DNA of 64,000 nucleotides from an uncultured Actinomycetes bacterium (GCA_963754265.1 CAVWFB010000003.1:151888-215887), one strand, 5' to 3'; positions 3,505 to 16,461 are shown, counted from the first letter of the stretch. Notes: a model not told the origin generated them from the letters alone. A program made the numbers and translations.

Positions 3505-4218
3505 TCACGGCTCCAGCGACCGGGCCAGCGCGAGCGCGCGGCTCAGCGGGATCCGCGCCTCGAGGCGATACCCCGTCCGGCCCTGCTGCCAGAGCAGCAC
3601 GTTCCCGGCCAGGCGGCCGTCGCGCTCGTACTCGACGTCGTCCGCGCCGCGATAGAAGACCGCGTGATCGCCGCCCGTGAGCCAGAGCGCGTCCACGCCG
3701 TGGACGTCGGCGATCTCGGTGCTCGTGCCCGGCCCCAGCAGCTTGTAGAAGAAGATGTGGTTCGACCGCCATTCGGTCAGGACGAGGCTGCTGCCGTACA
3801 CCGCGGTCACCGCCACCCCGCCCGCGCCGTCGCGATCGACGAAGACCCGGCTCGGCTTCCCGACGCCCTTCGGAAGACGTAGCGCGAATCTCGCCTCCCG
3901 CCTTGCCTCGTCGAGCGACACTCGCCGCCCCAGGTCGAACGCGGAGATTCGCGCGCTCGGCGGGAGCTTCTCGACCCGCTCGACGTGGACGCCGGGGATG
4001 AAGTCGAACCAGTCGCGGAACGCGCTTCGCGCCGAGGGAGAGAACACCGCCGTCAGCGCAACCGCCAACGCGGCCAGCGCAACGGCGAGGCCTACCTTCG
4101 GCCACGGACGGCCGCGGCGGCCAGGGAGGTCGCGGACGACCGACTCGCGGAGGCTCGGCGTCGGCGGGAACGGGTACGCGCCCACCGCGGCCTCGAGCCG
4201 CTGCTCGAGCTCGGTCAC
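3505..4218 (-). CDS. putative anti-sigma factor / sigma-associated single-pass membrane protein
   Basis: 237 aa with one TM ('VGLAVALAALAVALTAVF'). Its start overlaps the stop of the upstream ECF sigma gene by 4 nt (translational coupling). I recognised no enzymatic motif. Confidence 0.55.
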   Translation of the reverse strand: MTELEQRLEAAVGAYPFPPTPSLRESVVRDLPGRRGRPWPKVGLAVALAALAVALTAVFSPSARSAFRDWFDFIPGVHVERVEKLPPSARISAFDLGRRVSLDEARREARFALRLPKGVGKPSRVFVDRDGAGGVAVTAVYGSSLVLTEWRSNHIFFYKLLGPGTSTEIADVHGVDALWLTGGDHAVFYRGADDVEYERDGRLAGNVLLWQQGRTGYRLEARIPLSRALALARSLEP

Positions 4219-4772
4219 GCCGGTCCCTCCAGCTCCACTCGCAGCCGCTCCAGTGCGCGAAAGACGCGCATCTTGACCGCGCCGCGGCGAACTCCGAGCG
4301 CCGCCGCGGCCTCCTCGTCGGTGAGTCCGAGGAAGAAGCGCCCGATCACCGCGAGCCGCTCATCCGGACGCAGGGCTGCGATAGCGGCGAAGAGCTCCTC
4401 GCGCTGCTCGAGCTCGAGGACTGCCGCCTCGGGCGGCGGGGCCGCGCCGCCCGAGACATCTGCGCCCGCCACACGTCTCGTGAGCCCCTCCCGGCGGGAC
4501 CTCGCCCGCACCCGGTTCCGCGCCTCGTTGCCGACGATGCGCAGCAGCCAGGGCCGAAACGGCGAGCCGCGCCGGAAGCGCCCCAGCGCGCGGTATGCCT
4601 TCACGAACCCGTCCTGGGCGGCTTCCTCGGCCTCCGCGGCGTCGTGGAGCACCGCGTAGGCGACCCGGAAGGCGATGTGTTCGTGCATCTCGACGAGCGC
4701 TCCATACGCTCCCTCGTCACCTCCACGCGCGAGATCGAGGAGCTCTGACTCCGGCAGCGGTCGGCCCACCAC
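4215..4772 (-). CDS. ECF-type RNA polymerase sigma-70 family factor
   Basis: 185 aa. Region 2-like 'AEEAAQDGFVKAYRALGRFRRGSPFRPWLLRIVGNEARN' and region 4-like 'EEAAAALGVRRGAVKMRVFRALERLR'. Confidence 0.85.
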   Translation of the reverse strand: MVGRPLPESELLDLARGGDEGAYGALVEMHEHIAFRVAYAVLHDAAEAEEAAQDGFVKAYRALGRFRRGSPFRPWLLRIVGNEARNRVRARSRREGLTRRVAGADVSGGAAPPPEAAVLELEQREELFAAIAALRPDERLAVIGRFFLGLTDEEAAAALGVRRGAVKMRVFRALERLRVELEGPA

Positions 4773-4807: not shown

Positions 4808-5497
4808 CTACCTCGCCACCTCGCGCACGGCCCGGGCGAGCCGAGCGGCCGCTCTCGGCGACAGCCGCCCGGCCGGAAGCTCGACCACGAAGGCGGTCGT
4901 CCCGGCGATCGTTGCGTTCGACCAGCCGGTCGCCGTGCCCGGATAACGGGGCAGCCAGCCGGCCCTGAGACCGGCCAGTCGTGCGAAGCGGCGCTGCAGG
5001 CCGAGGTTCCCGGCGGTGAGGACGACCATGTTCAGGTGCTGGTGGAACCAGATCGTGACCTTCGGGCGCAGGCGCAGGATCAGGCTCATCGCGATGCGGG
5101 TCTCGCGTTCCGAGCCCGGTCCGGCGCCCGAGAAGTTGACGCCGCCGAGCGACCGCCAGCGCCAGGGGAAGTTGCGGTTCAGGTCGACTCCGCGCGCGTT
5201 GCCGCGCGTCCCCGCAGCGAGCCCGTCGGGGTTTGCGTCCGGAACGAGCCACAGGTCGACGCCGGCGAGCGGGCCGAGACGACGCAGCCGGTCGAGGATG
5301 GCGATCCCGGCGCACTCGTTGCCGTGGATGCAGCCGACGACGAGCACCTTGCGCGCGCTGCTCGGATCGCCGAGCTCGTAGGCGGCGATCGGCCGACCCT
5401 GGAGCGAACGACCGACGACGACCCTGCGCACCCCGGCGCTCGAGGCCGCCGCTCCGGCGAGCAGCAGCGCGAGCGAGAGAAGGGCCAGGAAGCGCAC
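4808..5497 (-). CDS. secreted M14-family zinc carboxypeptidase (MpaA / gamma-D-Glu-DAP peptidase-like)
   Basis: Signal peptide 'MRFLALLSLALLLAGAAA', zinc motif 'CIHGNECAG' (HxxE) and 'GVDLNRNFP'. 229 aa. Confidence 0.8.
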   Translation of the reverse strand: MRFLALLSLALLLAGAAASSAGVRRVVVGRSLQGRPIAAYELGDPSSARKVLVVGCIHGNECAGIAILDRLRRLGPLAGVDLWLVPDANPDGLAAGTRGNARGVDLNRNFPWRWRSLGGVNFSGAGPGSERETRIAMSLILRLRPKVTIWFHQHLNMVVLTAGNLGLQRRFARLAGLRAGWLPRYPGTATGWSNATIAGTTAFVVELPAGRLSPRAAARLARAVREVAR

Positions 5498-5523: not shown

Positions 5524-6393
5524 TTGACGGTCGTGGGTCTCCTTCGGTTCCTCCTGGCCGCGGTGCTGCTGGCTTCAGCCGTGGCGAAGCTCGCCGCGGG
5601 CCGCTCCGGCCGCGAGGCGCTCCGCTCGTACGGGCTCGAGTCCGCGCGAGCACGCGACGCCCTCTGGGGCGGAGTGATCGCCGCGGAGACCGCCGTCGCG
5701 GTCGGGCTCGCGGCCGACGTCCCGGGCGCCGCCGGAGCGGCCGCGACCTTGCTCGGGATCTTCGCGCTTGCGCTGGCGGTCGCGATTCGCCGCGGCCGGG
5801 CGGGCGCGCCCTGCGGATGCTTCGGCGCCGGGTCGCGGATCGGCTGGCCCGCCCTCGCCCGGACGGCGTTCCTGGCAGTGGTCGCCGCCGCCCTCGTCTT
5901 CCTCCCGGACACGAAACCCTCGACCGAGGCGTGGCTCGGCATCGGCCTGGCCGTGGCGCTGGTCGGGCTGGCCGCACTCTCCGTGGGCCTGCTCGCACTG
6001 GCCCGGGAGCTCGGGGAGCTTCGCCTCGCGATCGCGCCGCAGGCCGCGCTCTCGCTGGACCACGAGGGGCCGGAGGTCGGCGGGCGCGTCGCCCTGATCC
6101 AGCGCTTCGAAGGCCGAGCGCCGTTCGCAATCGCGGTCTTCACCTCCGCGGGCTGCGCGCTCTGCCGGGCACTCGAGCCCTCGCTGCGGCTGGTGGCCAA
6201 CGATCCCGAGGTGGAGCTCGAGCTCTTCGACGAGGAGGTCGACGCCGAGGCCTGGTCGTCGCTGGCGATACCTGGCAGCCCGTATGCGGTCGTGCTCGGC
6301 CGGGACGGCGAGGTGCTCGCAAAGGGCACGTTCAACTCGCTGTTCCAGCTGGAGAGTCTCATCGCGCACGCGACCGGGCCCGTGGGTGCCTGA
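5524..6393 (+). CDS. MauE/DoxX-type membrane domain fused to MauD-like thioredoxin-fold domain
   Basis: Four hydrophobic helices carry the 'APCGCFGAG' motif typical of MauE. The C-terminal domain has 'FTSAGCALCRAL' (CxxC). The start is uncertain (TTG 5524 or GTG 5533). The upstream part of track ORF 5233.. is shadow frame over the divergent M14 gene. Confidence 0.7.
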   Translation: MTVVGLLRFLLAAVLLASAVAKLAAGRSGREALRSYGLESARARDALWGGVIAAETAVAVGLAADVPGAAGAAATLLGIFALALAVAIRRGRAGAPCGCFGAGSRIGWPALARTAFLAVVAAALVFLPDTKPSTEAWLGIGLAVALVGLAALSVGLLALARELGELRLAIAPQAALSLDHEGPEVGGRVALIQRFEGRAPFAIAVFTSAGCALCRALEPSLRLVANDPEVELELFDEEVDAEAWSSLAIPGSPYAVVLGRDGEVLAKGTFNSLFQLESLIAHATGPVGA

Positions 6394-6955
6394 GCTGAGC
6401 CTCAGCGAGGCCGTCGCCGCGTCGACCTCGCGCCGAGGGTTCCTCGCGCGGGCGGGGCGGCTGCTCCTCGGCGTCAGCGGCGGGGGCTTCCTGGCCGCCG
6501 CCCTGCGCGCCCAGAAGGCCGAGGCCTACCACTTCTGCGGCCACATCTACACGACCGGCTCGTGCCCCCACCCTGTCGGCCTGCCCAGGATCGACCGCAA
6601 CGGCTTTCCGCTGCGGGCTGTGGACGGGAAGCCCGTCGACGACCTCGGGCGGCAAATCGACGCGGTCGGCCGGCCCGTGGATCCCCGCGGCGAGCTGCTG
6701 CGCGATCCGGACGGAAACCCGCTCCCGCCGGCGCCGCGCACGCGCGTCTGCACGGCGGCCGGACGCGAGTTCGGCTTCCGCCCCCAGATCGACGGCGCCT
6801 GGTACCGGTGCTGCAACGGCCACGTGCGCAAGCTCGTCGACTGCTGCGGCGCCGTCCGGAACCGGATCAACGGCGATGCCGCGCTCACCGGCTACTGCTA
6901 CAGCGGCCGGCGGGTGTTCTGCGTCATGTACTACGACACGAAGATCAAGTGCTGA
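6386..6955 (+). CDS. Tat-exported Cys-rich protein resembling methylamine dehydrogenase light chain (MauA-like)
   Basis: GTG 6386 overlaps the upstream stop by 8 nt. Twin-arginine signal 'TSRRGFLARAG'. The mature part has 10 Cys, with 'YHFCGH..GSCPHP', 'AWYRCCNG', 'DCCG' and 'VFCVMYY' (compare MauA 'AYRDCCG', from memory). Confidence 0.65.
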   Translation: MPELSLSEAVAASTSRRGFLARAGRLLLGVSGGGFLAAALRAQKAEAYHFCGHIYTTGSCPHPVGLPRIDRNGFPLRAVDGKPVDDLGRQIDAVGRPVDPRGELLRDPDGNPLPPAPRTRVCTAAGREFGFRPQIDGAWYRCCNGHVRKLVDCCGAVRNRINGDAALTGYCYSGRRVFCVMYYDTKIKC

Positions 6956-8380
6956 CCGCCGCGCTGTCGCTGACAGGCCTGCTCGTCGGCCTCGCGGGCG
7001 CCTGGTCGCCCTGAAGCCTCTCCATGGTCGGCACCGTGGGTGCCGCTCGCCAGGACGGACGACGGGCCTTCGCGCTGACGGCGGCGAGCATTCGCGACCG
7101 GGCTCGCGCTCGGCGCGACGCTCGTCTTCGGGGCTCTCGGCCTGCTCGGTGAGACCGTGCACTCGCGCGTCCTCGTCGTCTCCGCCGTAGCGGTCGCCGC
7201 CGCGGCGATCCTGAGCGACGCGGCCGGCCTGCGTGTCCGGCCGCAGATTCGCTTCCAGGTGCCCGAGCGCTGGCGCCGGACCATGCCTCTGCCCCAGGCG
7301 CTCTTCCTCTACGGCCTTCTGCTCGGAGCCGGCCTCACCACGTACGTGCCCGCGACCGCCGCCTGGGCGCTCCCCGCGCTCGGGCTCGCGGTCGGCGACG
7401 TTGCGGCGTCGCTCGCAATCGGGCTCGGCTTCGCCGTCGGGCGCGCGCTGCCGGTGCTGCTGCTCGCGGTGCGGGGCGAGGAGACGGCCCTCGCCGAGCG
7501 GCCGCAGGGGCTGCGCGCGCTGCGCGTGCTGATCGCCGCCTCGCTCGTGCTGGCGCTGGCCGCGGGCGAAGCGAGGGCCGCGGTCACGGTCGCCACGACG
7601 GGGGTCGACCCGAGCGCCGCCGACGTCGAGCTCGCCTGGCAGCAGCCGGGCGTCGGCGGCTTCCTGCTCCGGAACGGGGTCAAGACTCGGCTTCCGGGGA
7701 ACGACCCGGCGATCGGCGGCGCGCTCGTGGCCTGGCACGACGGCCCGAACGTCACCGTCGCCTCCCGCGACACGCTCACGCCGATGCTCCAGGAGCCGCT
7801 CGCGGGCGTCCAGAAGCTCGCGCTCACGGACCGCTGGCTCGTCTGGCGCAGCGGTTTGCAGATCCGCGTCCAGCCGTTGAGCGACCCGACCCGAAGCGCA
7901 CTCGTGGTCAAGGCCAAGCGGTTCGCTGAGCTCGGCCGGCCGGCGCTCGACGGCGATCTCGTCGTCTACCACTACGCCACTCCCTCCGGCAGCTGGCTGA
8001 CGACCGTGAACGTCGCCACCGGAGCCAGGGACCGGGTGCGCTACGCGAAGGACGCGCAGCTGCTCAACCCCTCCCTGCTCGGCGGGAGCCTCCTCTACGT
8101 ACGCACCTCACGCTGCGCGCAGGAGCTGCGCCTCGGCCCGCTGCACGGCGGCAAGGAGCGCGTGCTCTACAAGCTCCCGCCGCTCGCCGGCCAGGACCGC
8201 GGGCACGAGCCGGGCCACACGGAGCAAGGCGAGCGCCTGCCCTGCCCGCACCGGCCGAAGCCGACCACGCGGATCCTCTGGACGACCGCCCTCTCGGCCA
8301 CGACCGCGTACGTGACGATCCTGCGTCCCCGAAGGGGCGGCAGGACAACACCTACCCTGATCGCCGTGGCCCGGAGATAA
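6949..8380 (+). pseudogene. polytopic (CcdA/MauF-like) membrane protein with a beta-rich C-terminal domain; in-frame TGA 7012-7014 plus a frame break near 7090
   Basis: GTG 6949 overlaps the mauA-like stop. It reads 'VLTAALSLTGLLVGLAGAWSP', then TGA, then 'SLSMVGTVGAARQDGRRAFALTAASI'. The TM-like sequence 'ATGLALGATLVFGALGLLGETVHSRVLVV...' continues in the next frame into track ORF 7157..8380. The C-terminal ~270 aa is beta-strand rich (TolB/propeller-like impression). Confidence 0.5.
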
Positions 8381-8384
8381 GAGA

Positions 8385-8414
8385 TGGAGGGCCGCTGCGG
8401 CGTGCGGCCCTCCA
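8385..8414. terminator. GC-rich hairpin between convergent genes (possible bidirectional terminator)
   Basis: 'TGGAGGGCCGC' (8385-8395) and 'GCGGCCCTCCA' (8404-8414) form a perfect 11-bp inverted repeat with an 8-nt loop. It lies between stop 8380 (+) and stop 8430 (-). Confidence 0.5.
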
Positions 8415-8429
8415 CGCTTCCCTACCCGA

Positions 8430-10994
8430 TCAGAGCAGCTGATCCTCCCACTGGTTCTGGTCGGTCTTGCCCTTGTTCTTGACGTCAGTGTTACCAGTCG
8501 ACGTCGCTGTCTGCGTCGCGTTGCTCCCGCCGTCGTAGATGTTCCCTCCGGCTACGGAGTGCGGCGCGTTGCCGTTGACCGCGTTCTGGTCGCTGATGCC
8601 GAACCCGAGCGCGAGCTGTTTCGTCTTGGACAGCTGGACCCCGGCCTGGAATCCACCCGCACCGCCGCATCCGGCCTTACAGCCGGAGCCGCCGATGTTC
8701 TGGTGGAGGTCCTGGTCCTGGTCCGTCTTCGCCTTGTTCTTGACGTCCGCATTCGCGGACGAGGTCGCCGTCTGCGTCGCATTGCTCGGGCCGCCGGAGA
8801 TGTCCTTTCCGGCTTCCGAGCTGGGCGCGTTCGAGTTGACGGCGTTCTGGTGGCTCTTCGCGATGCCGAGCGCACCCTGCTTCGTCTCGGCGCTCTGGAT
8901 CCCGAGCTGGAACCCACCCGCGCCGCCGCAACCGACGAGGCAGCTGCCCTTCCGGCTGTCCCTCTTGGCGTCCGGGATGCCGCCGGAGCCGCTGTTGTTG
9001 CCGCTGCCCTTGTCGTTCGGGCTGCCCTTGCTGGCCTCTTTGCCGAGCGTCCCGCTCCGGTTCGCGTTGCTGCCGAGCGTGTCGGTCGTCCGGCTGTTGC
9101 CGAGCGGATAGGCGGTGCGGCTGTTGCCGGTCGGGCTGACCGAGCTGTTGTTCCCGGTGGGGCTGACCGAGCTGTTGTTCCCGGTCGGGCTGGCCGTGCG
9201 GCTGGGCGAGCCGCTCTTGCGGCCCTTCTTGCCGTACTTGCCGCTCTTCCGGTCATCCTGACGGCCGACCTTGTCCTTCTTTGCTCCCTCGCAGGAGCAC
9301 AGGACCGGGGCCTTCATGTCGCTGTTGCCGATGTTCTGCTCGAGCCCCTGGTCCTGATCGGTCTTGGCCTTGTTCTTGACGTCGGTGTCCGCGGTGGACG
9401 TCGCCGTCTGCGTGGCCGAGCTCGGGCCGGAGTTGATGTCCCCTCCGGCGATCGAGACGGGCGCATTGCCGTTGACCGCGTTCTGGTCGCTGAGCGCCGC
9501 GCCGATGGCCGCCTGATTCGTCTCGGCTTTCTGCACACCGAGCTGGAAGCCGCCGGGACCGCCGCAACCCACGTAGCAGCCTGAGCCGCCGATGTTCTGG
9601 GTGAGCGTCTGGTCCTGGTCCGTCTTGGCCTTGTTCTTGACGTCCGCGTTGGCGGTCGAGGTCGCCGTCTGCGTGGCGTCGCTCGGGCCGGAGGTCACGT
9701 TGCCCCCGGCGATCGAGACCGGCGCGTTGCCGTTGACGGCGTTCTGGTCGCTCTTCGCGAGACCGAGCGCGAACTGGTTCGTCTCGGCCTTCTGGACGCC
9801 GAGCTGGAACCCACCTGCGCCTCCGCAACCGGCGGAGCAGGAGTCGTCCTTCTGAGGCGTTCTCCCCTCGCAGGAGCAGGACTTCTCGTCGCTGCCGATG
9901 TTCTGGTTCAGCGTCTGGTCCTGATCGGTCTTGGCCTTGTTCTTGACGTCGGTGTCCGCGGTGGACGTCGCCGTCTGCGTGGCCGAGCTCGGGCCGGAGG
10001 TGATGTCACCGCCGGCGATCGAGACGGGCGCATTGCCGTTGACCGCGTTCTGGTCGCTCTTCGCAAGTCCGAGCGCCAGCTGCCCGGTGTCGGCCTTCTG
10101 CACACCGAGCTGGAAGCCGCCGGAACCGCCGCAACCCGCGTAGCAGCCGGAGCCGCCGATGTTCTGGTTTTGCGTCTGATCCTGGTCGGTCTTCGACTTG
10201 TTCTTCACATCAGCGCTGGCCGTCGAGGTCGCCGTCTGCGTCGCCGAGCTCGGGCCGGAGTTGACGTTTCCGCCCGCGATGTTCACGGGCACGTTGGCAT
10301 TCACTGCGTTCTGGTCGCTCTTGGCGATTCCCACTGCGGCCTGCTTCGTGTCGGCAGCCTGGACTCCAGCCTGGAATCCACCGGCACCGCCACAACCGGC
10401 CTTGCAGGAACCGCTCCCACCGATGTTCTGGTTGAGCGTCTGATCCTGATCGGTCTTCGACTTGTTCTTGACATCCGTGTTGGCCGTCGAGGTCGCCGTC
10501 TGCGTCGCCGAGCTCGGGCCGGAGTTGACGTTTCCGCCCGCGATGTTCACGGGCACGTTGGCATTCACTGCGTTCTGGTCGCTCTTGGCGACCCCGACGG
10601 CGATCTGCTTGGTGTCGGCTGCCTGGACCCCGGCCTGGAATCCACCCGCACCGCCGCATCCGGCCTTACAGCCGGAGCCGCCGATGTTCTGGTTCAGCGT
10701 CTGATCCTGATCGGTCTTGGCCTTGTTCGAGACGTCAGCATTCGCGTTCGAAGTGGCCGTCTGTGTGGCCGAGCTCGGCCCGGAGGTGATGTTCCCTCCG
10801 GCGATCGAGACCGGCACGTTGGCGTTGACCGCGTTCTGGTGGCTCAGCGCCACGCCGAGCGCTCCCTGAGCGGTCGACGCGGCCTGGACCCCGGCTTGAG
10901 CACCACCGGGACCACCGGAGCCGTCGGCGAACGCCGCGGGAGCGATGGCGAGTGCGGCAAGCACTACGGCCACGCCCATTCCTATGGCTTTCAT
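8430..10994 (-). CDS. secreted 854-aa repeat protein: eight 88-aa Q/N/T-rich repeats joined by C-x3-C nodes (uncharacterised)
   Basis: Strong SD 'AAGGAGAAGGG' precedes ATG 10994. Signal peptide 'MKAIGMGVAVVLAALAIAPAAFA'. There are eight copies of '..GGFQxGVQ..S(D/H)QNAVNxNxPVxIAGGN..SGPSxATQTATS..DVKNKxKTDQDQ..QNIGGSGCxxGC'. The track ORF start at 11072 is upstream of the SD. Confidence 0.85.
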   Translation of the reverse strand: MKAIGMGVAVVLAALAIAPAAFADGSGGPGGAQAGVQAASTAQGALGVALSHQNAVNANVPVSIAGGNITSGPSSATQTATSNANADVSNKAKTDQDQTLNQNIGGSGCKAGCGGAGGFQAGVQAADTKQIAVGVAKSDQNAVNANVPVNIAGGNVNSGPSSATQTATSTANTDVKNKSKTDQDQTLNQNIGGSGSCKAGCGGAGGFQAGVQAADTKQAAVGIAKSDQNAVNANVPVNIAGGNVNSGPSSATQTATSTASADVKNKSKTDQDQTQNQNIGGSGCYAGCGGSGGFQLGVQKADTGQLALGLAKSDQNAVNGNAPVSIAGGDITSGPSSATQTATSTADTDVKNKAKTDQDQTLNQNIGSDEKSCSCEGRTPQKDDSCSAGCGGAGGFQLGVQKAETNQFALGLAKSDQNAVNGNAPVSIAGGNVTSGPSDATQTATSTANADVKNKAKTDQDQTLTQNIGGSGCYVGCGGPGGFQLGVQKAETNQAAIGAALSDQNAVNGNAPVSIAGGDINSGPSSATQTATSTADTDVKNKAKTDQDQGLEQNIGNSDMKAPVLCSCEGAKKDKVGRQDDRKSGKYGKKGRKSGSPSRTASPTGNNSSVSPTGNNSSVSPTGNSRTAYPLGNSRTTDTLGSNANRSGTLGKEASKGSPNDKGSGNNSGSGGIPDAKRDSRKGSCLVGCGGAGGFQLGIQSAETKQGALGIAKSHQNAVNSNAPSSEAGKDISGGPSNATQTATSSANADVKNKAKTDQDQDLHQNIGGSGCKAGCGGAGGFQAGVQLSKTKQLALGFGISDQNAVNGNAPHSVAGGNIYDGGSNATQTATSTGNTDVKNKGKTDQNQWEDQLL
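8433..10919 (-). repeat. tandem coding repeat, period 264 bp (88 codons), 8 units
   Basis: The motif 'S(D/H)QNAVN' recurs 8 times. The opposite-strand shadow ORFs 10198..10443 and 10462..10704 are near-identical and offset by 264 nt, so some units have high DNA identity. Confidence 0.85.
9120..9200 (-). repeat. 27-bp tandem minisatellite (about 2.6 copies) inside the repeat-protein insert
   Basis: 'GGGCTGACCGAGCTGTTGTTCCCGGT(G/C)' occurs at 9133-9159 and 9160-9186, with partial copies flanking. It encodes 'SPTGNNSSV SPTGNNSSV SPTGNS'. Confidence 0.8.
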
Positions 10995-11020
10995 CCCTTC
11001 TCCTTGGTAGTTGGGGCGAC

Positions 11021-11072
11021 GCGCTGTCGCAGAACAGCGCGTGTACGTCGGCGCGCCGTCGCAGAACGGCAC
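11021..11072 (-). promoter_or_regulatory. two copies of a 20-bp palindromic element upstream of the repeat-protein gene (candidate operator or 5'-UTR hairpins)
   Basis: 'GCGCTGTCGCAGAACAGCGC' (11021-11040; 7-bp arms, 6-nt spacer) and 'GCGCCGTCGCAGAACGGCAC' (11053-11072) lie 32 nt apart, 27-78 nt upstream of ATG 10994. Confidence 0.3.
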
Positions 11073-11947: not shown

Positions 11948-12967
11948 TCACGACTGACGTCCCCAGGCGGTGCGAACGGGCCCGATCCAGGTCGACGAGA
12001 GCCACAGCAGGAGGGCGCCGAGCAGCGCGATCACCGTAACGGTCAGCAGGCCGGCCCCCGCGGCCCGCTGACCAGCCGGCGGGGAGACCGCCGGAAGAGG
12101 CGCGTGCGCGACGCGAGCGAAGACGCTCGTCGCCCGCTGGAGGCCGCCGGCATGCTCGGAATGCCGCTTCCCGATCGGCTTGGTGTCCGGCGCCCGGGCG
12201 GCCGCCGCCGGAAAACCGGCGGTATGAGCGGCTGCGGCTCCGCTGACCGGCCGCCCGAGCGACTTTTCCGCCGTCATGTCGGCGGGACGGGACGCGGGCG
12301 CGCTCCGCCGAGGCGCCGGCTGGCGGCTGCGATCGTTCGCAGCCGTCTTGCCCTGCGCGGCCTCGGCTGGCGCGGCTCCGGGCCGCAGAGCATGCGCTCG
12401 AGGTACTGCAACCCTCGGCGTGTTCCCCGCGGGCATTGCGCCCGTTTGAGACGTGGAACTTCCATTGTTTGCCCCGACTCCAACGCCGACGACGTTCGTC
12501 TGCGAGATCGGGCCGTCGTTCCCCGGGCTGTTGATCCGGATGGAGACGACGATGTTGACGGGATGCGACTGCGTTCCCTCGCCCGTCGCCGCTGCGTCTT
12601 GCCCGGTCGAGGCCTGCTGTGCTCCGCCGAGCTCGTCCGCGCCCGCCTGCGAGGTGTCGCTGCCGTTTCCGGCTCCGACGCCCACGACGGCGACGTTCGA
12701 CTGGGAGATCGCACCGTTGTTCCCGGGGCTGTCGATCCGCACCGAGATGACCATGTTGGTGGGCGAATCCTGCGTAGCCACGCCGTTTGCGGCCGCCGAC
12801 TGGTCCGTCGTGGCGGTCTGGGCCGGAATTTCGATCGGCGTGACGAGGTCGTCCGCAGCCGCGGTGCCGGCCACGGCGAGCGGATACAACGCACAGATCC
12901 CGGCCACCAGGCCGAAACGCGCTCGCCAGCCGAGATGGCGCAGATGGGGCGAGGAAGTCGGATGCAT
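11948..12967 (-). CDS. secreted, C-terminally membrane-anchored protein with two 'RIxSPGNxGxISQxNV' modules (hypothetical)
   Basis: ATG 12967. Signal peptide 'RFGLVAGICALYPLAVAGTAAA'. The modules are 'NMVISVRIDSPGNNGAISQSNVAVVGVGAGNGSDTSQ' and 'NIVVSIRINSPGNDGPISQTNVVGVGVGANNGSSTSQ'. A Pro/Ala-rich spacer follows, then a C-terminal TM 'LLTVTVIALLGALLLWL'. Confidence 0.75.
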   Translation of the reverse strand: MHPTSSPHLRHLGWRARFGLVAGICALYPLAVAGTAAADDLVTPIEIPAQTATTDQSAAANGVATQDSPTNMVISVRIDSPGNNGAISQSNVAVVGVGAGNGSDTSQAGADELGGAQQASTGQDAAATGEGTQSHPVNIVVSIRINSPGNDGPISQTNVVGVGVGANNGSSTSQTGAMPAGNTPRVAVPRAHALRPGAAPAEAAQGKTAANDRSRQPAPRRSAPASRPADMTAEKSLGRPVSGAAAAHTAGFPAAAARAPDTKPIGKRHSEHAGGLQRATSVFARVAHAPLPAVSPPAGQRAAGAGLLTVTVIALLGALLLWLSSTWIGPVRTAWGRQS

Positions 12968-13303
12968 TGTTTTCACGCGCGCAGTTAAGCTTTGGCTTGC
13001 CGTAATTGACGCTACCATAGCGGCGTGGTGATTTCCACCGATCTTTTCCAGAATTCTAACTTTCGGAGCAAAGGTTCGCGACGAGGCACACAACGCAGAA
13101 CATTGCAAAACGAATTTTGTTGGACGGAAGAAGGATGGCCATTGGACGATGGCTCACAGAGCCCAAGGAATGCGCGGTTTCGGGGCGGGATGCAGTGAAA
13201 ATCGCGATTTCAACGGCTCGCGATGGCCTGGGGCTATCGCTCGGCCGAAACTGCGCTACAGTGAGGGCCAAGCACGGCTGCTGCGTGACCTGGGGAGGGC
13301 ACG
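12968..13303. promoter_or_regulatory. 336-bp divergent intergenic region with clearly lower GC (promoter region for 12967- and 13304+ genes)
   Basis: Visibly AT-richer than its surroundings (e.g. 'TTTTCCAGAATTCTAACTTTCGG', 'CAAAACGAATTTTGTTGG'). It contains TAGAAT and TTGACG hexamers. Shadow ORFs only. Confidence 0.35.
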
Positions 13304-14300: not shown

Positions 14301-15380
14301 TTGCGCTTGCGCTTCGTGATCCTCTCGGGCGTCATCGTCTCCGCAGCCGCCGCCGCCGGCCCGGTCGATCTCTTACACCCTGAGCGGAACGACGGGCGAC
14401 AACGGCTGGTACCGCGTCAAACGTCGGCATCGTCTGGGTCGTGAACGGACGGGATGGCGACGCGGCGGCTGCGTCTCGACGACGCTGCTCAGCGACACCA
14501 ACGGCAGCACCGCAGTCCTGCACGGCCACCGACGGTACGATCGAAACGTCGTCAGTCCGGTCACGATCAAGATCGACAGGGTGGCACCGCCTCGTCACGA
14601 CCGCGTCTCCGGCGCGGGCGCCCGACTACAACGGCTGGTACAACCACCCGGTCGCGTTCTCGTTCGCGGGCACCGACGGCGGCTCGGGGCTCGCGAGCTG
14701 CTCGGTAGCGACCTACAGCGGCCCGGACAACGGCAGCGCGGCGGTGGGCGGAAGCTGCCGCGACAAGGCGGGCAACACCGGCTCGAACGCGTTCGGCCTC
14801 AGCTACGACGCGACGGCCCCGACGCTGAGCAAGGTCGAGGTGGCGAGCCGCGCCGCCTCGGCGCTCGTCCACTGGCAGTCGACGAGCCCGGCGGACACGA
14901 TCGTCGTCCACCGGTCGGCTCGCGGGAACAAGGCGGACCCGACGGTGTTCCGGGGCGCCGCCTCGAGCTTCGCCGACAAGAAGATCCAGCGCGGCCTCGA
15001 GTACGTCTACTCGCTGCAGTCCTACGACCAGGCGGGTAACGCGTCCAAGGTCGTCTCGGCGGTCGCCCTGCCCAAGGTGCTGACGCTCCGCAAGACGCCC
15101 TACACCCCTCGGGCCGCGGCCAATCCGGTGCTCCGCTGGGACGCCATCCGCGGCGCGACGTACTACCACGTCCAGCTCTTCCGGGGAAAGAAGCGGATTC
15201 TCGCCGCCTGGCCGAGCAGCGAACGAGCTCACGCTTCCGGCGGCGTGGCGCTGGGCCGGCCATCGCTACAAGCTCGGCCCCGCCCGCTACCGCTGGTACG
15301 TGTGGGAGGGCATCGGCAAGCGCTCGTTCGCCCGCTACCGGACTCTCGGCAGCGCAGCCTTCATCGTCCCGAAGCGGTAG
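14301..15380 (+). pseudogene. secreted Ig-like ('NGWY' / OmpL47-like) surface protein gene with multiple frame breaks
   Basis: The signal-like '(M)RLRFVILSGVIVSAAAAAGP' (TTG 14301) is followed by protein-like segments that alternate between frames: 'ISYTLSGTTGDNGWYRV', 'NVGIVWVVNG', 'GCVSTTLLSDTNGSTAV', 'SCTATDGTIETSSV', 'SPVTIKIDRVAPP', then 'VTTASPARAPDYNGWYNHPVAFSFAGTDGGSG...'. The C-terminus 'NELTLPAAWRWAGHRYKLGPARYRWYVW..FIVPKR' is in a third frame, ending at TAG 15378-15380. Confidence 0.55.
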
Positions 15381-15445: not shown

Positions 15446-16461
15446 ATGAGCGAACGGATCTACGTACAGACCAACGACGCGGAGCGAAACGAGATCGTGG
15501 CGTTCGACCGCTCGGCCGACGGCCGGCTCGAGCGCCTCGGCACCTTCGACACCGGCGGGCGGGGGACCGGGAAGCCCCACCTCGCCTCACAGAGCTCGAT
15601 CGTGCTAAACGGCGAGGGCACGCTGCTGCTCGTCGCCAATGCCGGCAGCGACGAAATCTCGCTGTTCACCGTCGAGCCCGACGGGCTACTGCTCGTGGCG
15701 CAGGCTCCGTCGGGCGGAAGCACCCCGACGAGCATCGCGGTACACGGCGAGCTCGCATACGTCCTCAACAACGGCCAGCCCGGGATCAGCGGCTTTTCGC
15801 TCTCGAACGGTGGCCTCGCCCCGATCGAGGGCTCCTCACGGCCGCTCGACCCCGCCGCCGATCCCGCGCAGATCGCCTTCAGCCCCAACGGTCGCACGAT
15901 CGTCATCACCGAGCGCGGCACCAACGCATCAGCGCGTTCACCGTCGACGACCGCGGCTACGCGGACGGGCCGGCCACGATCGCGTCGTCGGGCACGACTC
16001 CCTATGGCTTCGACTTCGCAGAGGACGCCGTGATCGTGACCGAGGCCTTCGGCGGCGAGATCGGCGCCGCGGCGGCCTCGTCGTACTCGCTCGCGGAGCC
16101 GGGGCGGCTCGCACCCGTCAGCGCCTCGATCGGCGACACGCGCAGCGAGGTGTGCTGGGCGGCGATCACGAACGACGGCCGCTTCGCCTACGTGACGAAC
16201 TTCGGCGACGGCACGATCTCCAGCTACGCGATCGGCGGCGACGGCAGCATCGAGCTGCTCGAGCCCGTCGCCGCCTCGACGCGCAGTGGCGAGAAGGGCA
16301 TCCGCGACGAGGCGATCAGCCGCGACGGGCGCTACCTGTACGCGATCGATGCGGACGCGCAGCGGGTGTACGGGTGGACGGTCGGCGGCGACGGCCGGCT
16401 CGCGCCCGTGGGCGAGTTCGAGGGGGTCCCGGCCACCGTCGCCGGGATCGCGGCAAGCTAG
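15446..16461 (+). CDS. 7-bladed beta-propeller lactonase family protein (YbhE/6-phosphogluconolactonase-like), frame break near 15927
   Basis: SD 'GGAGGG' precedes ATG 15446. Track ORFs 15446..16033 and 16030..16461 join as '..ITERGTNA|ISAFTVDDRGYADGPATIASSGTTPYGFDF..'. Recurring motifs include 'LLVANAGSDEISLF', 'YVLNNGQPGISGF', 'AYVTNFGDGTISSY' and 'LYAIDADAQRVYGW'. Confidence 0.75.

Follow-up and report, generated by a model that had tools for sequence, protein, structure and literature searches.

A mau-type accessory cassette around a cysteine-rich Tat-signal protein in Thermoleophilia, with a predicted selenocysteine in the MauF-like component of Gaiellaceae

The locus and its relatives

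The window is a stretch of 64,000 nucleotides from an uncultured Actinomycetes bacterium (GCA_963754265.1 CAVWFB010000003.1:151888-215887), in which all positions are counted from the first letter. The subject of this analysis is a cassette of three overlapping genes at positions 5524-8380, in which homologues of the mau accessory proteins MauE, MauD and MauF enclose a gene for a small cysteine-rich protein with a twin-arginine translocation (Tat) signal. The remaining genes of the window have functions unrelated to the cassette according to Pfam. The three genes are as follows.

5524..6393, plus strand: gene 1, a MauE-MauD fusion (Pfam, BLASTP, tblastn)
6386..6955, plus strand: gene 2, a 189-aa Tat-signal protein (sequence; homologue alignment)
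6949..8380, plus strand: gene 3, a MauF-like polytopic membrane domain followed by a beta-propeller, readable only if the UGA at 7012-7014 is decoded and one base near 7085 is taken out

The G+C content of the window is ~72%, and its nearest relatives are metagenome-assembled genomes (MAGs) of Gaiellaceae. A search with gene 2 matched at least 528 species stretches in GTDB, from which 80 genome loci were retained; three more obtained by protein look-ups bring the sample to 83 related loci. The loci L001-L039 are from Gaiellaceae and carry the TGA form of gene 3 described below, except L019 and L037, in which the MauF-like domain is absent. Reference sequences for MauF, MauD and MauA were taken from the mau cluster on plasmid 1 of Paracoccus denitrificans PD1222 (L084).

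Gene 1 is a MauE-MauD fusion

Gene 1 starts at TTG 5524 or GTG 5533, the choice being uncertain, and encodes five predicted transmembrane (TM) helices followed by an extracytoplasmic thioredoxin-fold (Trx-fold) domain. Residues 4-126 match the Pfam MauE family PF07291 at an E-value of 7e-19 (68.8 bits, with a cutoff of 27). According to a 2026 preprint, MauE is a DsbB-like disulfide generator that complements E. coli dsbB by means of a CXC motif (10.64898/2026.03.05.709764). Gene 1 keeps this motif together with the MauE residues TM1 Lys (AVAKL, 5578-5592) and TM2 Glu (AAETA, 5680-5694), and the Trx-fold domain has a CxxC motif of its own.

5812..5826, plus strand: CGCFG, the MauE active-site CXC followed by F-G (sequence; motif as defined in 10.64898/2026.03.05.709764)
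6154..6165, plus strand: CALC, the CxxC of the MauD-like thioredoxin domain, which aligns with CPVC of P. denitrificans MauD

The C-terminal 140 residues match P. denitrificans MauD in BLASTP (3e-11, 28% identity, 167 aa), with the TM anchor and the CxxC both covered. The MauD model TIGR02661 also matches (E 6e-8), and its 32.3 bits lie far under the equivalog cutoff of 188.6; by these scores the MauD part is a homologue, not an equivalog. Among the related loci, tblastn found matches in 71 with MauD as the query and in 14 with MauE. MauE by itself no longer marks methylamine dehydrogenase: MauA occurs in only 10% of MauE-bearing species, and Trx fusions make up 8.2% of MauE proteins (10.64898/2026.03.05.709764).

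Gene 3 joins a MauF homologue to a beta-propeller

Gene 3 begins with a GTG at 6949 that overlaps gene 2 by 7 nt, and it has two parts.

6949..7591, plus strand: MauF-homologous membrane domain (hhalign, tblastn)
7607..8377, plus strand: beta-propeller domain, probably extracytoplasmic (AlphaFold2 (AF2) model of the homologue P0312; Foldseek)

No Pfam model exists for MauF, and the membrane domain returned nothing significant in Pfam, NCBIfam or a PDB profile search; only direct comparison with MauF succeeded. In hhalign, the family alignment A4 scored 98.6% against P. denitrificans MauF (E 1.2e-15, 169 columns, 36% identity), pairing TWSPCGYSS of MauF with TWSPCGFSM and also pairing PQRRAQVP, LYGLSLG and GRFLPV. 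A tblastn search with MauF matched 35 loci, with a best E-value of 1.8e-12. In the window, the motifs read WSPU (U being the predicted selenocysteine, Sec), PQIRFQVPERWRR (7241-7279), LYGLLLGAGLTTYV (7307-7348) and GFAVGRALPV (7427-7456), and the last TM helix terminates at EARA/A (7568-7591). The profile and motif evidence identifies the membrane domain as a MauF homologue. Its conserved TM1 WSPC column holds Cys in 36 of 36 Cys-type proteins and UGA in 29 of 29 Sec-type proteins.

The propeller occupies the C-terminal 260 residues. It is modelled by AF2 in P0312 with a predicted local distance difference test score (pLDDT) of ~90, and the top Foldseek matches of the model are TolB (E 1e-7) and generic propellers. 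A pair of cysteines lies at 8108-8128 (SRC) and 8237-8257 (LPCPHRP). In hhalign the domain shows no sequence link to MauB, the heavy-chain propeller of the mau system (0.1%). In L019 (6531-7430) and L037 (6533-7430), both from Gaiellaceae and one of them on a closed 2.9-Mb chromosome, the MauF-like domain is gone and a signal anchor plus the propeller remain beside gene 2.

The window copy of gene 3 is interrupted twice. From GTG 6949 the frame reads VLTAALSLTGLLVGLAGAWSP and then meets the TGA at 7012-7014; ~24 codons past this TGA, the coding signal moves to the frame of the open reading frame (ORF) 7157..8380.

7084..7086, plus strand: extra base and frame shift in gene 3, GGCGGCGAG in the window and GGCGGGAG otherwise (alignment to L003 and L004)

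Dropping one base at 7086-7087 restores ALTAAAFATGLALG. Two close relatives, L003 (98% identical) and L002 (93%-related), have one continuous gene 3 frame of 476-477 codons save for the TGA, and the window is alone among TGA loci in having the frameshift. Because L003 lacks it and several other single-base indels separate the two assemblies, the extra base is probably a long-read consensus or assembly error; it may alternatively be a strain-specific lesion. The earlier note on this stretch, written from the sequence alone, gave gene 1 correctly as a MauE domain with CGCFG joined to a thioredoxin domain with CALC. Its account of gene 3 as a membrane protein with a beta-rich outer domain was right about the start at 6949 and the 7-nt overlap, and wrong in treating 6949-8380 as one open frame; the TGA, the frameshift, the hairpin described below and the homology to MauF had been missed.

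The in-frame TGA is a candidate selenocysteine codon

The TGA within gene 3 falls on the sole Cys-equivalent of the MauF-like domain.

7012..7014, plus strand: in-frame TGA, candidate selenocysteine codon, in the motif AWSP-U-SLSM (TGA compared with TGC or TGT across loci)

Both the window and all 37 Gaiellaceae loci that have the motif WSP_(S/G)(L/F)SM (39 were retrieved) carry TGA at this codon, so a sequencing error does not account for it. In 42 loci of Solirubrobacterales, Thermoleophilaceae and deeper Gaiellales, TGC or TGT stands in its place. The Cys form P0312, a metagenomic protein of 67% identity, reads GSWSPCSLSMVGT. In MauF and in the Cys forms, the stretch homologous to the 20 codons before the TGA is TM1. 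Across 35 distinct sequences, these 20 codons differ from the consensus at 134 synonymous and 51 non-synonymous codons, with 145 of 204 changed bases in third positions, a pattern that points to purifying selection at the protein level. The frame after the TGA stays open for ~450 codons in complete loci. The two types also differ elsewhere, as Cys45 in TM2 is present in 32 of 36 Cys-type versus 0 of 29 Sec-type proteins, and the propeller Cys pair in 29 of 29 Sec-type versus 6 of 36 Cys-type proteins. Other ORF-TGA-ORF junctions screened in the window yielded no convincing second candidate.

Insertion of selenocysteine at 7012-7014 is predicted and very likely, because UGA and Cys form a pair at the conserved TM1 Cys of MauF and a conserved hairpin lies 15 nt further on. 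One alternative is that the TGA is an ordinary stop. Gene 3 would then start without TM1 at ATG 7024, four codons on, and the 21 codons ahead of the TGA would be a relic or a small upstream ORF, or else the window copy would be a pseudogene. Public gene calls on TGA forms do begin at that Met, and the resulting 450-451-aa 'hypothetical proteins' dominate the homologue list; the copy in the window is frameshifted, and L019 and L037 have lost the entire MauF domain. However, the upstream codons are conserved as protein and include the only conserved Cys of the family, the Met in question sits within an SM motif that is conserved in the Cys forms too, and the hairpin is kept only together with the TGA. 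The frameshift, moreover, is confined to the window among the TGA loci. An ordinary stop or a pseudogene is very improbable.

A SECIS-like hairpin follows the TGA

The spacing and loop criteria used here for a selenocysteine insertion sequence (SECIS) are modelled on E. coli fdhF-type elements. The candidate element has a stem of 6-7 bp and a 5-nt loop with GU, and it begins 15 nt past the UGA.

7029..7045, plus strand: SECIS-like hairpin CGGCAC-CGUGG-GUGCCG (pairing, synonymous-site invariance)

The six pairs of the hairpin (CGGCAC-CGUGN-GUGCCG) form in 34 of 34 distinct TGA-type sequences, including L038, which carries a compensatory change from G:C to C:G. Third codon positions are invariant across the hairpin and vary in the flanks. 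The loop-closing codon is NGT in all 34 (AGT, CGT or GGT, encoding three different amino acids), although G+C at third codon positions is ~0.9. In the nearest Cys-type gene (L091, with TGC), which encodes the same SLSMVGT peptide, synonymous changes destroy the stem, and the remaining Cys-type genes also lack the SECIS-like hairpin. As a separate observation on the first 30 nt past the Cys codon in L040-L083, many genes that encode MIETIG have a small hairpin, GAUCG-AGA-CGAUC, at the position that the SECIS-like hairpin has in Sec-type genes, which could be chance or a remnant.

A gene for tRNA-Sec is present in the 'Actinobacteria bacterium AC_21' Gaiellales MAG (L072, 2243-2334), with anticodon TCA, as detected by ARAGORN and by the Rfam model RF01852 (66.8 bits). 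The distance from this tRNA gene to the Cys-type cassette downstream is 3.7 kb; it is surrounded by genes for DUF1206, a metallo-beta-lactamase and a HAD hydrolase, and no sel genes are beside it. The Sec trait therefore exists in Gaiellales. The window itself contains no Sec-machinery genes or tRNA-Sec, and tblastn with approximate E. coli SelA and SelD queries found nothing in the window or the 83 Thermoleophilia loci.

A tRNA-Sec-like tRNA may also be charged with cysteine, the 'tRNA-ReC' mechanism, and the UGA would then be recoded to Cys. The UGA/Cys pair and the hairpin fit this equally well. Against it stand the rarity of the mechanism, the score of the L072 tRNA as a standard tRNA-Sec, and the specific loss of the TM2 Cys45 in TGA forms, which suggests altered chemistry. 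Recoding to Cys is consequently close to negligible as an explanation, and selenocysteine is retained as the predicted residue.

Gene 2 encodes a Tat-signal protein with ten cysteines

Gene 2 overlaps gene 1 by 8 nt. Its twin-arginine leader, TSRRGFLARAG, has the RR motif at 6428-6445 and an AEA/Y cleavage site near 6518-6535. The mature part of ~143 aa contains 10 Cys and a single Trp (W139), all of which are invariant in clean homologues, and its motifs are AWYRCC with the invariant Trp (6797-6814), DCCG (6839-6850) and an invariant C-terminal Cys. The family comprises 2704 homologues, all annotated as 'hypothetical', in 248 clusters at 50% identity, and its conservation (70-93%) is far above that of genes 1 and 3.

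The earlier note was accurate about the overlap, the leader, the cysteines and the single Trp, and the strings AWYRCCNG and DCCG that it called MauA-like are real. The homology of the mature domain that it drew from them is without support in any profile comparison. The MauA family model PF02975, which matches P. denitrificans MauA at 2e-53 as a positive control, does not match gene 2: there is no Pfam match at E<=0.01 and no NCBIfam match at E<=1, and neither single-sequence nor profile searches of the PDB returned a MauA or aromatic amine dehydrogenase (AADH) chain. In hhalign, a single MauA sequence aligned with gene 2 only at DCCG. A profile of eight MauA/AauA-type sequences aligned only with the leader (92.3%, E 5.6e-7, 35 columns), where the match is partly generic Tat consensus, and the mature core scored 1.4% against the MauA family. 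The core did score 41.5% (E 2.7e-4) against MauA-like paralogues of Thermomicrobium that share GAWYxCC...DCC. An AF2 model of gene 2 had a pLDDT of 61, too poor for use, and Foldseek on that model gave no match at E<1. Assignment of gene 2 to the MauA family is accordingly not supported, since the likeness is confined to the leader and GAWYxCC...DCC and the mature domain has no profile support. On these comparisons homology to MauA cannot be demonstrated, and membership of the family is not established.

The Thermomicrobium paralogues deserve a description of their own. The Thermomicrobium roseum megaplasmid NC_011961.1 (L085, 5916-13537) has at least two MauA-like small Cys-rich genes, both with a terminal Cys and one unannotated in the PLSDB table. 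They are interleaved with genes for 'hypothetical' secreted proteins of 390-430 aa and for a multi-TM hypothetical protein, and may represent another non-canonical MauA-type system. The propeller of gene 3 has no similarity to the ~400-aa neighbours of these genes.

The resemblances nevertheless permit a reading in which gene 2 and the propeller are a true quinoprotein dehydrogenase of the MauA/MauB type, tethered to the membrane by MauF, with a cofactor made from the single Trp, for example a Cys-Trp quinone of W139 and a nearby Cys. In that case the three genes would encode an enzyme along with its maturases and would be more than a system for folding. The order of the genes is E-D-'A' as in the mau cluster, where mauF and mauB adjoin; the leader is like MauA leaders, the core matches paralogues that likewise end in Cys, W139 is invariant, and the propeller stays by gene 2 when the MauF domain is missing. 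Against these points, no Pfam, NCBIfam or PDB-profile search links the mature protein to MauA, the leader match is partly generic, and the propeller is unlike both MauB and the Thermomicrobium neighbour proteins in sequence. In addition, tblastn did not find MauG, the Pfam-scanned genes of the window include no LodB-, QhpG- or QhpD-like domain, and genes for amicyanin or a cytochrome acceptor are missing from the surroundings. A quinoprotein dehydrogenase is the main alternative to the reading proposed below, and it is unlikely on this balance. The canonical cofactor tryptophan tryptophylquinone (TTQ), which the earlier note had thought impossible here, is indeed precluded if a motif alignment by eye is accepted, in which the protein has one Trp and the second TTQ Trp position reads Phe (RVFC, compared with DIIWC).

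The cassette is a conserved operon of Thermoleophilia

The gene order 1-2-3 is kept in nearly all of the 80 loci and the flanking genes vary; the same survey shows that the module recurs beyond the genome in which it was noticed. All of the loci retained are from Thermoleophilia, a class of soil bacteria, cultured Solirubrobacter species among them. Together with the overlaps, this distribution indicates a translationally coupled three-gene operon that, among the 80 loci retained, is specific to the class. The operon is sometimes interrupted, as gene 3 sits 3.6 kb downstream of gene 2 in Solirubrobacter taibaiensis (L074, 6001-10245), lies 0.7 kb further off than usual in L071 (6001-7344), and was not found within 6 kb in S. 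phytolaccae (L062).

Neither the 64-kb window nor the 83 related loci contain MauB, MauA, amicyanin, MauJ, MauG, MauM or MauN by tblastn. The absence of MauB, MauG and amicyanin nearby, as well as the presence of dedicated maturation genes, had been recognised at the outset, and the latter now extend to a homologue of MauF in addition to those of MauE and MauD. What the earlier note called an orphan Mau-like module is thus upheld with respect to its helper homologues and its orphan status, and not with respect to gene 2 as a MauA-like protein by family.

The breadth of this distribution is relevant to a further alternative, in which the cassette is a housekeeping disulfide system of Thermoleophilia, composed of a DsbB/DsbA-like pair and a reductive arm, in which gene 2 would serve as redox carrier or cofactor protein and not as the client. 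MauE takes over the function of E. coli dsbB and occurs widely in the absence of MauA (10.64898/2026.03.05.709764), and the cassette occurs in at least 528 species stretches, with unrelated and variable flanks. However, gene 2 is always between both redox genes, joined to them by stop/start overlaps, and is by far the more conserved, and a ten-Cys protein with a Tat leader would be an odd redox carrier. A general housekeeping system is improbable in view of this arrangement.

Neighbouring genes and assembly differences

Two features adjoin the cassette directly.

8384..8415, no strand: GC-rich 12-bp hairpin between gene 3 and the convergent gene of an 880-aa repeat protein
4808..5497, minus strand: secreted M14 zinc carboxypeptidase, divergent from gene 1 (Pfam)

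The hairpin probably marks the end of the operon. The M14 carboxypeptidase gene is a frequent, not constant, neighbour, being adjacent upstream in L001-L005, L007-L009 and L030 and directly downstream of gene 3 in L036, L043, L052, L056, L072 and L080; its product may be accessory to the cassette. Upstream of the M14 gene, 3505-4772 on the minus strand encodes an extracytoplasmic function (ECF) sigma factor at 4215-4772 and, at 3505-4218, a probable anti-sigma protein that matches no family. This pair occurs only in the window, L003 and L004 and is absent at the same position in L001, L002 and L005. On the other side, the gene at 8430-11072 (minus strand), found in close relatives only, encodes the 880-aa secreted protein, which consists of tandem repeats of ~87 aa (261 nt) rich in Gly, Asn, Gln and Thr. 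The repeat pattern is CGGAGGFQ.GVQ...DQNAVNANVP...ATQTATS...KTDQDQ, and neither Pfam nor NCBIfam has a match for the protein. Positions 11948-13108 (minus strand) encode another low-complexity secreted protein of a similar kind.

Comparison of the window with L003 revealed 25 indel events across 15 kb, several or many of them single-base changes within genes, and either assembly may be the one affected. The sites in the window include 3529, 4545, 7085, 14313-14590, 15219 and 15925. The lactonase ORF at 15446-16033, for example, encodes 195 aa in the window where relatives have 338 aa; the ECF sigma gene is whole in the window and split in L003. This pattern suggests long-read consensus errors in both assemblies.

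A proposed client-specific disulfide cassette

The reading proposed here, to which a probability of about 0.6 is given, is that the cassette is the accessory half of a mau system reused around a different client, with a probable new selenoprotein in Gaiellaceae. Gene 1 would be a quinone-linked DsbB-like disulfide generator fused to a DsbA-like carrier that faces outward after the fifth TM helix, as the described activity of MauE suggests (10.64898/2026.03.05.709764). Gene 2 would be the dedicated client, in the position that mauA has in the mau cluster. Docking of gene 2 would fall to the propeller of gene 3, much as MauB, itself a propeller, holds MauA; retention of the gene 3 propeller beside gene 2 in the two loci without a MauF domain fits docking, and the idea of a beta-rich partner for gene 2, already raised in the earlier note, agrees with this. 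In Gaiellaceae, SelB and tRNA-Sec would insert Sec at the UGA. Since Sec/Cys pairs mark redox-active catalytic residues, the Cys or Sec of MauF is taken as a catalytic thiol or selenol, the putative partner of the oxidising MauE-MauD arm. By forming mixed disulfide or selenylsulfide intermediates and resolving them, MauF could then let the many cysteines of the client pair correctly, acting either as a reductant or isomerase or as a transmembrane electron relay.

Several points weigh against this proposal. The role of MauF as isomerase or relay is deduced from the Sec/Cys exchange, and that of gene 2 as client from gene position. Tat export before external disulfide formation is unusual, though MauA does likewise. 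With respect to selenocysteine, the thermodynamic signal of the hairpin by itself is weak (single-sequence z-score -1.75), the near-invariance of the element leaves covariation dependent on one sequence (L038), and Rfam has no matching model for the hairpin or a SECIS in the window. The tRNA-Sec comes from a Cys-type relative and not from a TGA-type genome. Finally, the window copy of gene 3 is frameshifted and so possibly non-functional in this strain.

A combined possibility is that the MauF family is a class, not recognised before, of one-Cys transmembrane thiol or selenol catalysts and that the cassette, in addition, makes a new cofactor, cross-linked or a quinone, out of the single invariant Trp of gene 2 and the Cys next to it, with gene 2 held on the propeller. 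Both parts holding together is decidedly unlikely. If it were so, the Sec form would reveal the active site of MauF, and the product would be a new membrane-tethered quinoprotein in very abundant soil Actinomycetota.

Should the proposed reading hold, gene 3 would found a new family of polytopic membrane selenoproteins, absent from a published inventory of 119 families (PMC13188914). The autonomous use of the MauE/MauD/MauF trio for a client other than MauA would likewise extend the general disulfide-forming role of MauE (10.64898/2026.03.05.709764).

Gaiellaceae are a dominant and little-studied soil lineage, and on this reading many public records of MAGs and metagenomes misannotate the gene, giving its product as a shortened hypothetical protein. 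To our knowledge, no function has been assigned to MauF since mau clusters were sequenced in the 1990s; because exchange between Sec and Cys nearly always points to a catalytic redox residue, the single WSPC Cys offers a directly testable active site. There is also a practical warning, as both a UGA and a single-base indel were overlooked by gene callers and by the first reading of this high-GC long-read assembly.

Comparison with known systems

The transporters CcdA/DsbD (PDB 5VKV) are, like the membrane domain of gene 3, polytopic with 'SPC' in TM1; a weak colinear alignment places LYG.LLGlGFTT of gene 3 on the second CcdA motif, GWTPC. This alignment has no statistical support (hhalign P 0.028), Pfam DsbD_TM reached only E 0.16 in 1 of 27 members, and no PDB profile matched, so that assignment to CcdA/DsbD was rejected. 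Gene 3 also has no second active-site Cys, and the two-Cys relay mechanism of CcdA is therefore inapplicable to the MauF-like domain.

The mau cluster of P. denitrificans (mauFBEDA) shares with the cassette homologues of MauE, MauD and MauF, and the Cys-rich Tat-leader gene 2 is placed after MauE-MauD as mauA is, with mauF and mauB adjacent in P. denitrificans. The MauF proteins have in common the single TM1 motif TWSPCG(Y/F)S as well as PQ.R.QVP, LYG..LG and GR.LPV. In contrast, the cassette is without MauB, MauG, amicyanin, MauJ, MauM and MauN, its MauE is fused to MauD and its MauF to a TolB-like propeller, and the Cys position of MauF is a predicted Sec in Gaiellaceae. Relative to the MauE proteins studied in 10.64898/2026.03.05.709764, gene 1 has the same CGC followed by FG, the TM1 Lys, the TM2 Glu and a Trx-fold fusion. 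The difference is that this fusion, known here from sequence, shares its operon with the gene of a MauF homologue and that of a dedicated Cys-rich protein, an arrangement undescribed there.

The light chains MauA and AauA (PF02975) resemble gene 2 in a long leader of the form E..(L)sr.vA..tSRR.fl.r.G (a likeness that is partly generic Tat consensus), in W-x3-C ... DCC(G), in an aromatic residue followed by Cys near the C-terminus, and in their dependence on MauE/D/F-type neighbours. They differ from gene 2 in that there is no profile match, the second TTQ Trp is Phe in gene 2, and the Cys count is other: gene 2 has 10 instead of the 12 of MauA, with one Trp and a 60-residue insert rich in Pro, Asp and Gly. 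The Thermomicrobium MauA-like paralogues, which also end in Cys, are the sole and weak bridge between gene 2 and MauA.

The 2026 inventory of 119 prokaryotic selenoprotein families includes membrane and transporter members, namely TsoB rhodanese/DsbD-fusion-like proteins (UxxxxU), MerT-like proteins, YeeE/YedE and the SO_0444 Cu/Zn efflux protein (PMC13188914). No MauF-like or WSPU family appears in it, no NCBIfam model matches gene 3, and literature searches turned up neither a MauF with Sec nor any selenoprotein from Gaiellales. The likeness lies in the principle, as in those membrane selenoproteins Sec takes the place of a functional Cys in or near a membrane domain and Cys orthologues exist. 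The cassette is in this sense a variation on known kinds, namely the accessory genes of mau clusters and thiol-redox proteins in their Sec forms.

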